Below, in pieces: positions 27,519-32,920 of a stretch of 64,000 nucleotides of DNA. This stretch comes from Escherichia coli (lineage in GTDB: Bacteria; Pseudomonadota; Gammaproteobacteria; Enterobacterales; Enterobacteriaceae). A program made the translations under genes and the position numbers. Each line of letters starts with the position of its first letter. The first letter of the stretch is position 1. The stretch lies in NCBI RefSeq assembly GCF_003334305.1, contig NZ_QOWS01000013.1; one strand, given 5' to 3'. Below the pieces are notes generated by a model that was given only the letters and a program-made list of their open reading frames with translations, was not told where the DNA came from and searched no databases.

Positions 27519-30500
27519 GTGAGGCGATTGCCGGGGATTTTACTGCTTACTGGAGCCGCGCTCGTTGTGATCGCTGCCCTGCTGGTTAGCGGCCTGCGTA
27601 TTGCTTTACCGCATCTTGACGCCTGGCGTCCGGAAATCCTCAACAAAATAGAATCCGCGACTGGCATGCCGGTAGAAGCCAGTCAGCTCTCAGCCAGCTG
27701 GCAGAATTTTGGCCCGACGCTTGAAGCGCACGACATCCGTGCAGAACTAAAAGATGGCGGCGAAGTTTCGGTTAAACGCGTTACTCTGGCGCTGGATGTC
27801 TGGCAAAGCCTGTTACATATGCGCTGGCAGTTTCGTGATCTCACTTTCTGGCAGCTGCGCTTTCGAACCAACACTCCTATCACCAGCGGTGGTAGCGATG
27901 ACAGTCTGGAAGCCAGTCACATCAGCGATCTGTTTCTTCGTCAATTTGACCATTTCGATCTCCGCGACAGTGAAGTCAGTTTCCTGACGCCATCCGGTCT
28001 GCGCGCCGAGCTGGCGATCCCACAACTCACCTGGCTGAACGATCCACGTCGACACCGTGCGGAAGGTCTGGTAAGCCTCTCCAGCCTTACCGGACAGCAT
28101 GGCGTGATGCAGGTGCGCATGGATTTGCGCGATGATGAGGGGTTGTTAAGCAATGGTCGCGTCTGGCTCCAGGCGGATGACATCGACCTGAAGCCGTGGC
28201 TCGGTAAATGGATGCAGGACAATATTGCGCTGGAAACGGCACAGTTCTCCCTTGAAGGCTGGATGACGATCGACAAAGGCGATGTAACCGGCGGTGACGT
28301 CTGGCTGAAACAGGGCGGTGCCAGCTGGTTGGGCGAGAAGGAAACGCATACGCTGTCGGTGGATAATCTGACCGCGCATATTACGCGTGAAAATCCGGGC
28401 TGGCAGTTCTCTATTCCCGATACACGGATCACGATGGACGGTAAACCCTGGCCGAGCGGAGCATTGACGCTGGCCTGGATACCGGAACAGGACGTTGGCG
28501 GCAAAGACAATAAACGCAGTGACGAACTCCGGATTCGCGCCAGTAATCTGGAGCTGGCAGGCCTGGAGGGCATACGCCCGCTGGCCGCGAAACTTTCACC
28601 TGCACTGGGTGATGTTTGGCGCTCCACACAACCGAGCGGCAAGATTAACACTCTGGCGCTGGATATCCCGCTTCAGGCGGCAGACAATACCCGTTTTCAG
28701 GCATCGTGGAGCGATCTGGCCTGGAAGCAATGGAAATTATTACCGGGTGCGGAACACTTCTCCGGGACGCTTTCCGGCAGCGTTGAAAATGGTTTGCTTA
28801 CCGCGTCGATGAAGCAGGCAAAGATGCCTTACGAAACGGTATTCCGTGCGCCACTGGAAATCGCCGACGGCCAGGCAACTATAAGCTGGCTGAACAATGA
28901 CAAAGGTTTCCAGCTGGATGGGCGTAATATTGACGTTAAAGCCAAAGCCGTCCATGCGCGCGGCGGTTTTCGTTACCTGCAACCTGCTAACGATGAACCC
29001 TGGCTGGGTATTCTGGCTGGCATCAGTACCGATGATGGTTCACAAGCCTGGCGCTATTTCCCGGAAAACTTGATGGGTAAAGACCTGGTTGATTACTTAA
29101 GTGGCGCGATTCAGGGCGGTGAAGCGGATAACGCGACGCTGGTTTATGGTGGCAATCCGCAACTCTTCCCCTATAAACACAACGAAGGTCAGTTTGAAGT
29201 GCTGGTGCCGCTGCGCAACGCGAAGTTTGCCTTCCAGCCGGACTGGCCTGCATTAACTAACCTTGATATTGAACTGGACTTTATTAACGACGGTTTATGG
29301 ATGAAAACCGATGGCGTTAATCTGGGCGGCGTGCGCGCGAGTAATCTCACCGCAGTGATCCCTGACTACTCAAAAGAAAAACTGCTGATTGACGCTGACA
29401 TTAAAGGTCCGGGTAAAGCCGTAGGCCCTTACTTTGATGAGACACCGCTGAAAGATTCTCTGGGTGCGACCCTGCAAGAACTCCAGCTCGACGGCGATGT
29501 GAATGCTCGCTTACATCTTGATATCCCGCTGAACGGCGAACTGGTAACCGCGAAAGGTGAAGTGACGCTGCGTAATAACAGTCTGTTTATCAAACCACTC
29601 GACAGCACCCTGAAAAATTTGAGCGGTAAATTCAGCTTTATCAATGGCGATCTGCAAAGTGAACCACTGACAGCAAGCTGGTTTAATCAGCCGTTGAACG
29701 TGGATTTTTCCACCAAAGAAGGGGCAAAAGCCTACCAGGTTGCGGTGAATCTCAACGGTAACTGGCAACCGGCGAAAACCAGCGTTCTGCCTGAAGCGGT
29801 GAACGAAGCATTGAGTGGCAGCGTGGCGTGGGATGGTAAAGTGGGCATTGATCTGCCTTATCATGCTGGCGCGACCTATAACGTAGAGATGAACGGCGAT
29901 CTGAATAATGTGAGTAGTCACTTACCTTCACCGTTAGCCAAACCTGCGGGTGAACCACTAGCGGTAAACGTTAAGGTTGATGGCAATCTCAACAGCTTTG
30001 AATTAACCGGACAGGCTGGTGCGGATAACCATTTCAATAGCCGCTGGTTGCTTGGTCAAAAGCTGACGCTCGATCGTGCTATTTGGGCGGCAGACAGTAA
30101 AACGCTCCCGCCGTTGCCGGAACAAAGTGGCGTTGAACTCAATATGCCGCCGATGAATGGTGCCGAGTGGCTGGCCCTGTTCCAGAAAGGCGCTGCGGAG
30201 AGTGTCGGTGGTGCAGCGAGTTTCCCACAACACATAACGTTACGTACGCCTATGTTGTCACTGGGAAATCAGCAATGGAATAACCTGAGTATTGTTTCGC
30301 AACCGACGGCAAATGGCACCCTGGTTGAGGCGCAAGGGCGTGAAATCAACGCCACGCTAGCGATGCGTAATAACGCGCCGTGGCTGGCGAATATCAAATA
30401 TCTTTATTACAACCCGAGCGTGGCGAAAACTCGTGGTGATTCAACGCCGTCATCACCTTTCCCGACAACGGAGCGCATTAACTTCCGTGGCTGGCCGGAC

Positions 30501-31319
30501 GCACAAATACGATGCACAGAGTGCTGGTTCTGGGGGCAAAAATTCGGTCGCATTGACAGTGATATCACCATTTCTGGCGATACGTTAACGCTGACCAATG
30601 GACTGATTGATACTGGTTTCTCGCGGCTTACTGCCGATGGTGAATGGGTTAATAATCCGGAGAATGAACGTACCTCGCTGAAAGGAAAACTGCGCGGGCA
30701 GAAAATTGATGCCGCCGCAGAATTTTTTGGTGTCACGACGCCCATACGCCAGTCGTCATTTAATGTGGATTACGATTTACACTGGCGCAAAGCACCCTGG
30801 CAACCAGATGAGGCGACGTTGAATGGCATCATTCATACTCAACTGGGTAAAGGCGAAATTACCGAAATCAATACCGGACATGCCGGGCAATTGCTGCGCT
30901 TATTGAGCGTTGATGCCCTGATGCGTAAGCTGCGTTTTGATTTCAGAGACACTTTTGGCGAAGGGTTCTATTTTGACTCCATTCGCAGCACCGCGTGGAT
31001 TAAAGACGGCGTTATGCACACCGACGACACGCTGGTGGATGGCCTGGAGGCGGATATCGCCATGAAAGGGTCGGTAAATCTGGTACGTCGCGACCTGAAT
31101 ATGGAAGCGGTTGTCGCACCAGAGATTTCTGCGACGGTGGGCGTGGCTGCGGCTTTTGCGGTTAACCCCATTGTTGGCGCGGCAGTGTTTGCCGCCAGTA
31201 AAGTGCTGGGGCCGCTGTGGAGCAAAGTCTCCATTTTGCGCTATCACATTTCGGGTCCGCTGGACGATCCGCAAATCAACGAAGTGTTGCGCCAACCGCG
31301 TAAAGAAAAAGCGCAATGA
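27519..31319 (+). CDS. yhdP: AsmA-like large envelope protein (phospholipid transport)
   Basis: 1266-aa ORF with N-terminal TM anchor; size and position match yhdP. Confidence 0.94.
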   Translation: MRRLPGILLLTGAALVVIAALLVSGLRIALPHLDAWRPEILNKIESATGMPVEASQLSASWQNFGPTLEAHDIRAELKDGGEVSVKRVTLALDVWQSLLHMRWQFRDLTFWQLRFRTNTPITSGGSDDSLEASHISDLFLRQFDHFDLRDSEVSFLTPSGLRAELAIPQLTWLNDPRRHRAEGLVSLSSLTGQHGVMQVRMDLRDDEGLLSNGRVWLQADDIDLKPWLGKWMQDNIALETAQFSLEGWMTIDKGDVTGGDVWLKQGGASWLGEKETHTLSVDNLTAHITRENPGWQFSIPDTRITMDGKPWPSGALTLAWIPEQDVGGKDNKRSDELRIRASNLELAGLEGIRPLAAKLSPALGDVWRSTQPSGKINTLALDIPLQAADNTRFQASWSDLAWKQWKLLPGAEHFSGTLSGSVENGLLTASMKQAKMPYETVFRAPLEIADGQATISWLNNDKGFQLDGRNIDVKAKAVHARGGFRYLQPANDEPWLGILAGISTDDGSQAWRYFPENLMGKDLVDYLSGAIQGGEADNATLVYGGNPQLFPYKHNEGQFEVLVPLRNAKFAFQPDWPALTNLDIELDFINDGLWMKTDGVNLGGVRASNLTAVIPDYSKEKLLIDADIKGPGKAVGPYFDETPLKDSLGATLQELQLDGDVNARLHLDIPLNGELVTAKGEVTLRNNSLFIKPLDSTLKNLSGKFSFINGDLQSEPLTASWFNQPLNVDFSTKEGAKAYQVAVNLNGNWQPAKTSVLPEAVNEALSGSVAWDGKVGIDLPYHAGATYNVEMNGDLNNVSSHLPSPLAKPAGEPLAVNVKVDGNLNSFELTGQAGADNHFNSRWLLGQKLTLDRAIWAADSKTLPPLPEQSGVELNMPPMNGAEWLALFQKGAAESVGGAASFPQHITLRTPMLSLGNQQWNNLSIVSQPTANGTLVEAQGREINATLAMRNNAPWLANIKYLYYNPSVAKTRGDSTPSSPFPTTERINFRGWPDAQIRCTECWFWGQKFGRIDSDITISGDTLTLTNGLIDTGFSRLTADGEWVNNPENERTSLKGKLRGQKIDAAAEFFGVTTPIRQSSFNVDYDLHWRKAPWQPDEATLNGIIHTQLGKGEITEINTGHAGQLLRLLSVDALMRKLRFDFRDTFGEGFYFDSIRSTAWIKDGVMHTDDTLVDGLEADIAMKGSVNLVRRDLNMEAVVAPEISATVGVAAAFAVNPIVGAAVFAASKVLGPLWSKVSILRYHISGPLDDPQINEVLRQPRKEKAQ

Positions 31320-31392
31320 TTTGACGAGGGCGCGTAATTGCCCCAATCTCATATGATAATCGTTGCCAAAGGCCAACGAGCCGGAACATAAC

Positions 31393-31430
31393 TGTAGGCC
31401 GGATAGGGCGTTCACGCCGCATCCGGCAGC
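31393..31430. repeat. REP (repetitive extragenic palindromic) element
   Basis: GTAGGCCGGATAGGGCGTTCACGCCGCATCCGGCA is the reverse complement of the canonical REP motif GCCGGATGCGGCGTGAACGCCTTATCCGGCCTAC; lies between yhdP and tldD. Confidence 0.85.
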
Positions 31431-31459
31431 CGTAAAAAATCCTCTACTGCAGTAACTAA

Positions 31460-32920
<1,461 letters not shown>

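Follow-up and report, generated by a model that had tools for sequence, protein, structure and literature searches.

The window analysed here, a stretch of 64,000 nucleotides of Escherichia coli DNA, carries at positions 31394-31428, in the spacer between yhdP and tldD, a singleton REP of class Y, for which we propose with high confidence that it represents the minimal allele of a locus expanded to a BIME-2 array in other strains. All the testable defining features of a Y-type REP were found in this element. The cataloguing of E. coli REPs goes back decades, and the element is genuine but ordinary, already known in kind; the gain is one of annotation certainty, namely its class (Y), its limits (31394-31428), its GTAG-first reading on the sense strand, and the absence of a BIME in this strain. 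A REP had been noticed at this place in a sequence-only reading of the same DNA, and that observation is confirmed and its interpretation supported, with refinements concerning the wording of the orientation, the lack of a partner, the polymorphism of the locus and the array-specific nature of the gyrase evidence.

Identity and structure of the element

The features of the locus are listed below in window coordinates, each with its strand and the basis of its assignment.

27519-31319, + strand: yhdP (AsmA2 domain protein), the upstream gene, ORF of 1266 aa with its stop at 31317-31319 (RefSeq annotation)
31363-31377, + strand: possible vestige of an inverted partner, TTGCC..AAAGGCCAAC against TGCC[..]AGGCCTAC (MAFFT)
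31378-31393, + strand: left linker GAGCCGGAACATAACT, homologous to the Z-to-Y linker AAACGGAACATAACC of the K-12 array (alignment)
31394-31428, + strand: Y-type REP (palindromic unit), GTAG-first, GTAGGCCGGATAGGGCGTTCACGCCGCATCCGGCA, 35 nt
31394-31397, + strand: conserved GTAG, foot of the palindrome (sequence read)
31398-31404, + strand: 5' arm of the outer stem, GCCGGAT, pairing with ATCCGGC at 31421-31427 (RNA and DNA folds)
31405-31406, + strand: stem mismatch, AG against GC at 31419-31420 (folds, consensus and covariance model)
31407-31418, + strand: inner stem GGCG/CGCC with the TTCA loop at 31411-31414 (RNA and DNA folds)
31421-31427, + strand: 3' arm of the outer stem, ATCCGGC (RNA and DNA folds)
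31429-31433, + strand: right linker GCCGT, equal to the 5 nt between Y and Z in the K-12 array (sequence comparison)
31475-32920, + strand: tldD (metalloprotease), the downstream gene, ORF of 481 aa with its ATG at 31475 (RefSeq annotation)

The gene names were taken from the RefSeq annotation beneath 100%-identical matches. The yhdP-tldD spacer is 155 bp long, and the REP starts 74 nt past the yhdP stop and leaves 46 nt between its end and the tldD ATG; in context it reads ...aacataacT, then GTAGGCCGGATAGGGCGTTCACGCCGCATCCGGCA, then Gccgtaaaaaatcc. The extragenic placement characteristic of REPs is thus found, the element lying between the yhdP stop (31319) and the tldD start (31475), and both the ORFs and the RefSeq annotation agree with the earlier description of a single, extragenic REP between these two genes. 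The limits then given, 31393-31430, do contain the 35-mer but exceed it by one base at the left end and by two at the right.

For the classification we employed 12 reference REPs, consisting of the seven copies at this locus in K-12 MG1655, copies flanking rayT in the K-12 'REPtron', which had served as substrates in the characterisation of TnpA_REP, and copies from a second E. coli strain. The REP at 31394-31428 is identical at 34 of 35 positions to the consensus derived from this set, GTAGGCCGGATAAGGCGTTCACGCCGCATCCGGCA, and a blastn-short comparison with the Y consensus gave the same 34/35 with an E value of 3.6e-13. The sole departure is a change of A13 to G (base 31406), which leaves the mismatch positions unpaired; the same change is common to the outer Y copies at yhdP-tldD of K-12 and to IAI39, and is absent in E. 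albertii. The element carries G8, G15, a 4-nt loop and a length of 35 nt, all specific to Y, the Z traits being T8, A15 and a longer loop, so that comparison with the consensus classes, as proposed in the sequence-only reading, assigns it to Y and not to Z. Against the published K-12 Y REP, GTAGGacgGATAAGgCGttCACGcCGCATCcGGCA (Nunvar et al. 2010, PMC2817692, Table 1), 33 of 35 positions are identical, and one of the two differences falls at a position marked by those authors as variable. A covariance model built from known REPs scored the element at 59.6 bits (E 1.5e-13). Together with the GTAG foot and the imperfect hairpin, these scores bear out the designation as a canonical REP.

A 43-nt query centred on the element detected at least 40 similar places in each of the 5,426 complete E. 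coli genomes (5,426/5,426); the 64-kb window holds one copy, as judged by the covariance model. The element therefore belongs to a high-copy dispersed repeat. The feature table of NC_000913.3 lists no REP features, and the arms of the REP are too short and too interrupted for it to appear in the 25 longest pairs given by a generic inverted-repeat finder.

The predicted fold of the element consists of 7-bp and 4-bp stems separated by a 2x2 internal mismatch and closed by the TTCA loop. As RNA the hairpin has a free energy of -22.8 kcal/mol (z -3.64), and none of 200 shuffled sequences was equally stable; as single-stranded DNA the values are -12.2 kcal/mol for the + strand and -11.2 kcal/mol for the - strand. 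Binding and cleavage by TnpA_REP in vitro need a 5' GTAG and the stem mismatch (Ton-Hoang et al., PMC3333891), and both are found in the element. The + strand, which is the sense strand for both yhdP and tldD, reads the REP GTAG-first, and GTAG-first corresponds to the 'REP', not the 'iREP', orientation in the RAYT literature (PMC3333891). The 'reverse orientation' previously ascribed to the element depends on convention, being correct in the older Bachellier convention but not in that of the RAYT literature.

The whole 64 kb was scanned, with filters off, using the covariance model built from the 12 reference REPs. After the element itself, the best match was its own site read on the other strand (11 bits), and the remaining hits in the 64 kb did not exceed 9.4 bits (E>2). 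The model recovered all seven K-12 copies at 56-59 bits, as may be expected of a model built partly from them, and it gave scores of 27-62 bits to independent copies in E. albertii, other Escherichia, Citrobacter and Salmonella. The results of blastn-short, a two-arm scan and a regular-expression search agree on one REP in the 64 kb. The view that this is the only clear REP in the window therefore holds, with nothing else above noise in the model. A search for a partner, which had also been suggested, detected no intact inverted REP nearby in this strain.

Two other candidates in the window were rejected. Two stretches that match the consensus in part, 62346-62357 and 62473-62484, are separated by 127 nt within a coding ORF and are due to chance. 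A REP-like hairpin at 41360-41399, which on the - strand reads TGCTGATGCG...GCATCAGGCTTAC, has GTAA for GTAG and a 17-nt loop and falls below noise in the covariance model; its neighbours are the ORFs 40229-41296 and 41386-42795, each on the - strand, and it runs into the end of the upstream one. We take these ORFs to be degS and degQ, and the spacer accordingly to be that of degQ-degS.

Alleles of the yhdP-tldD spacer in E. coli

A 401-bp query spanning the spacer gave matches in all 5,426 complete E. coli genomes, from which a systematic sample of 60 was taken in even steps down the match ranking. The alleles in this sample were as follows.

Single REP: match span 401 bp, 38 of 60 genomes (about 63%)
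5 REPs: span +183 bp, 2 of 60 genomes
7 REPs: span +274 bp, 18 of 60 genomes
9 REPs (a BL21 derivative): span +365 bp, 1 of 60 genomes
IS1397 insertion (IAI39): match interrupted, 1 of 60 genomes

Arrays of 5, 7 or 9 alternating Y and Z2 REPs were thus present in 21 of the sampled genomes (about 35%). The K-12 repeat unit was matched at 99% identity or higher in 1,720 records, a number that fits the presence of an array in about a third of the genomes. The K-12 spacer is 429 bp long, versus 155 bp in the window, and is arranged as Y-Z-Y-Z-Y-Z-Y (four Y and three Z2), repeating about every 91 bp; GCCGT links Y to Z, and AAACGGAACATAACC links Z to Y. The Z units of this array resemble the z2 units beside rayT, the longer Z flanking rayT being termed z2 in the literature (PMC3333891, PMC2817692), and the K-12 array is therefore of the BIME-2 type. 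Two or more alternating REPs with short linkers, the arrangement that defines a BIME, were found at the same locus in K-12 (7 REPs), L002 (7) and L016 (5), and not in the window, where the covariance model detects one REP.

One of these arrays, L002 (NZ_CP148573.1, 695-1003), is a chimeric allele, in which flanks 100% identical to those of the window enclose an array of 7 REPs. At its last junction the tail of a Z unit is fused to a left flank of the window type at AGGCC (...CTTATCAGGCC|AACGAGCCGGAACATAACTGTAGG). This junction points to a recombination event that joined a Z REP to the AGGCCAAC motif on the left of the singleton.

In IAI39 the loop of the orthologous REP is occupied by IS1397, a member of the IS3 family with a programmed frameshift (L003, 2715-4152), and the insertion has a GTT duplication on its flanks, matching window positions 31410-31412. 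IS1397 targets the REPs of E. coli specifically (Tobes & Pareja 2006, PMC1525189), and its presence in the orthologous loop is natural, independent evidence of recognition as a REP. The IAI39-type junction occurs in at most 5 of 5,426 genomes. In many other genomes, IS1397 ends adjoin a similar Y half-REP at other loci. Both the copy-number polymorphism of REPs between strains and their targeting by IS1397 have been described (PMC3333891, PMC1525189), and there is nothing new in kind. Single REP, arrays of 5-9 copies and IS1397 insertion together show in one small natural locus how REPs change, and the site may offer a test bed for the proposed role of a REP as terminator or stabiliser.

Origin of the singleton and its possible roles

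A DNA-pattern scan of one genome per species identified 114 loci with a tldD start, for 107 of which the yhdP-tldD spacer could be measured. Most of the 107 spacers are 72-88 bp long and REP-free, as in Klebsiella, Enterobacter, Kosakonia, Buttiauxella, Erwinia and several Citrobacter. In E. albertii and two other Escherichia species the spacer measures 148-155 bp and contains one Y REP, placed as in the window, which indicates that the singleton predates E. coli. In C. youngae, C. portucalensis and C. koseri (L022, L064, L094), REP pairs occur at a second point of the spacer, inside CTTCTACCGCAGT^AACTAA. Unrelated MITE-like inserts of 120-240 bp were observed in the same spacer in Klebsiella, Raoultella, Cedecea and Citrobacter JGM124 (L008, L029, L051, L073, L102), and the yhdP-tldD spacer is an insertion hotspot in other genera.

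A separate observation concerns the sequence right after the yhdP stop (31320-31350), where the pattern TTTGACG-N9-(A/T)ATT(G/A)CCnCAnnCT(C) is invariant or nearly so in 43 distinct enterobacterial yhdP-tldD spacers, from Escherichia to Erwinia, while the nine nucleotides inside it vary freely. A conserved hairpin at this place was rejected, RNAalifold giving no consensus pairs for the pattern, and the sigma-70 scan detected no promoter there. The segment has the look of a signal conserved at the DNA level, possibly a protein site or an unusual promoter for tldD.

The first alternative to a functional element is that the singleton is a neutral relic, the surviving half of an old REP pair (BIME or REPIN), which would be immobile and without measurable effect on yhdP or tldD, and would persist through drift, with occasional re-expansion by recombination. 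This account is quite plausible, and several observations point in its direction. An inverted REP, a linker and a REP are present at the equivalent place in S. enterica arizonae, C. werkmanii and C. braakii, and MAFFT aligns window positions 31363-31377 with the inverted REP of these three. The left flank retains TTGCC..AGGCCAAC and a linker like that of the K-12 array; as a whole (31363-31393, TTGCC-AAAGGCCAAC-GAGCCGGAACATAACT) it resembles a partner REP deleted in its centre and followed by the array linker. REP doublets are moreover considered to be the mobile unit in the REPIN model, singlets being argued to be defunct, immobile remnants of doublets (PMC3116915). On the other side, the similarity of the whole left flank to the K-12 unit, reached by 2 of 2,000 shuffles, arises mostly through the linker, and this likeness could stem from the array copying the flank; the putative relic alone is statistically weak against K-12 (48/2000 shuffles) and not significant against Citrobacter or Salmonella, and the REP covariance model did not detect 31363-31377. 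Across Escherichia species the REP has hardly mutated (34/35), which suggests conservation or homogenisation. As judged from the sequence, the left flank may possibly be a decayed partner REP.

With respect to a role in expression, both yhdP and tldD lie on the + strand, and a scan of the spacer between them detected neither a sigma-70-like promoter nor a hairpin-plus-T-run terminator, so that the REP is probably transcribed within a yhdP-tldD read-through RNA. Our literature search found no transcript data on the yhdP-tldD junction, and the roles considered here are drawn by analogy from other loci. REP325 has been described as a partly Rho-dependent attenuator and a stabiliser of upstream mRNA, and tandem gene pairs with a REP show a higher ratio of upstream to downstream expression, with a median log ratio of 0.96 versus -0.09 for controls (bioRxiv 10.64898/2026.03.23.713779). 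These values refer to whole REP elements, many of them with multiple hairpins, and are accompanied by a large variance between loci and no general effect on half-life (bioRxiv 10.64898/2026.03.23.713779). REP RNAs are also known as stable structured decay intermediates, for the clearance of which poly(A) polymerase is needed (PMC5389530). By the same analogy, the RNA hairpin of the yhdP-tldD element would form a barrier to 3'->5' exonucleases, giving modest protection to the yhdP mRNA, and would act as a weak, partly Rho-dependent attenuator of read-through into tldD. The hairpin may then modestly favour the expression of yhdP over that of tldD, a view to which we lean tentatively, while the absence of any measurable effect on expression is a serious possibility in its own right.

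As DNA, the REP is a candidate binding site for RayT/TnpA_REP where the genome carries that gene, and it may serve as a landing pad for IS1397 and as a recombination seed for both gain and loss of the array. No RayT homologue was detected in the 64-kb window (tblastn best E 0.57). Among the complete E. coli genomes, rayT was detectable by megablast in 3,575 of 5,426, and REP copies numbered at least 40 in all 5,426. The GC skew of the window is slightly positive (+0.016), a weak hint that the GTAG-first strand serves as the lagging-strand template, the single-stranded DNA acted on by the TnpA_REP enzyme family.

A more far-reaching proposal is that the REP copy number at yhdP-tldD works as a heritable, coding-neutral dial, which sets the yhdP:tldD expression ratio together with the presence of a strong, transcription-independent gyrase site. 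We consider this proposal unlikely; if it were true, lineages would differ in outer-membrane phospholipid transport, TldD protease dosage or local supercoiling purely through the repeat.

It is rather improbable that the main role of the singleton is that of a binding and cleavage site for DNA gyrase organising local supercoiling, as in the K-12 allele. In the data of Sutormin et al. (PMC6379681), whose text draws attention to this locus, the tldD-yhdP BIME-2 of K-12 has 35 ciprofloxacin-induced cleavage sites, among the highest numbers of all BIME-2, and gyrase prefers y-type REPs. These counts, however, belong to an array of 307 bp with 7 REPs, and of the five BIME-2 entries of 21-33 bp considered from the same table, four have no cleavage site and one has a single site. 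The gyrase site mentioned in the sequence-only reading is accordingly documented at yhdP-tldD for the 307-bp array of K-12 (PMC6379681), but not for the single REP. Caution is needed here, as properties of the K-12 array such as multiple gyrase cuts and a hairpin ladder should not be assumed for the one-REP allele.

There is very little to recommend a Rho-independent terminator of yhdP: the hairpin is GC-rich and lies 74 nt past the yhdP stop, but the U-run that should accompany it in an intrinsic terminator is missing, the following bases being GCCGTAAAAAATCC / GCCGTAAAAAA, the scan of the spacer found no terminator, and the sequence is a dispersed repeat and not a locus-specific hairpin. A chance palindrome or a small-RNA gene like naRNA4 has next to no probability, since an E value near 1e-13 and the presence of 40 or more copies in each genome exclude chance, and the sole Rfam match in the spacer, to the REP-derived naRNA4 (RF02564), reaches 36.7 bits against a gathering score of 59.5, falling below the threshold because that family, itself a Z2+Y REP pair from REP325, has two hairpins and the element only one.

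Comparison with known systems

The element resembles the situation described by the REPIN model in being a singleton with a possible eroded left partner, related genera having a doublet at this position; the definition of REPINs comes from Pseudomonas, and the evidence for a former partner of the element is weak. It is like REP325/naRNA4 (yjdM-yjdN) in that a REP hairpin is located between co-oriented genes, and it is from there that the proposed role as stabiliser of the upstream mRNA and leaky terminator is borrowed, but unlike REP325, which has 12 hairpins, it has one.

The element also has parallels in the Y REPs at rayT in the K-12 'REPtron', with which it shares the GTAG foot, the length of 35 nt, G8, the TTCA loop, the 7-bp and 4-bp stems, the 2x2 mismatch and the extragenic location, 33 of 35 positions being identical to the REPtron copy GTAGGACGGATAAGGCGTTCACGCCGCATCCGGCA. 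Unlike those copies, it carries the change of A13 to G at a normally conserved position and has no adjacent partner. The site itself has already been named in the literature as the tldD-yhdP BIME-2 (PMC6379681). The element differs from the BIME-2 of K-12 in having one REP, no Z2 units and no periodicity of about 91 bp in the window, but chromosomal site and outer flanks are shared, and the Y copies at the ends of the K-12 array are nearly identical to it.
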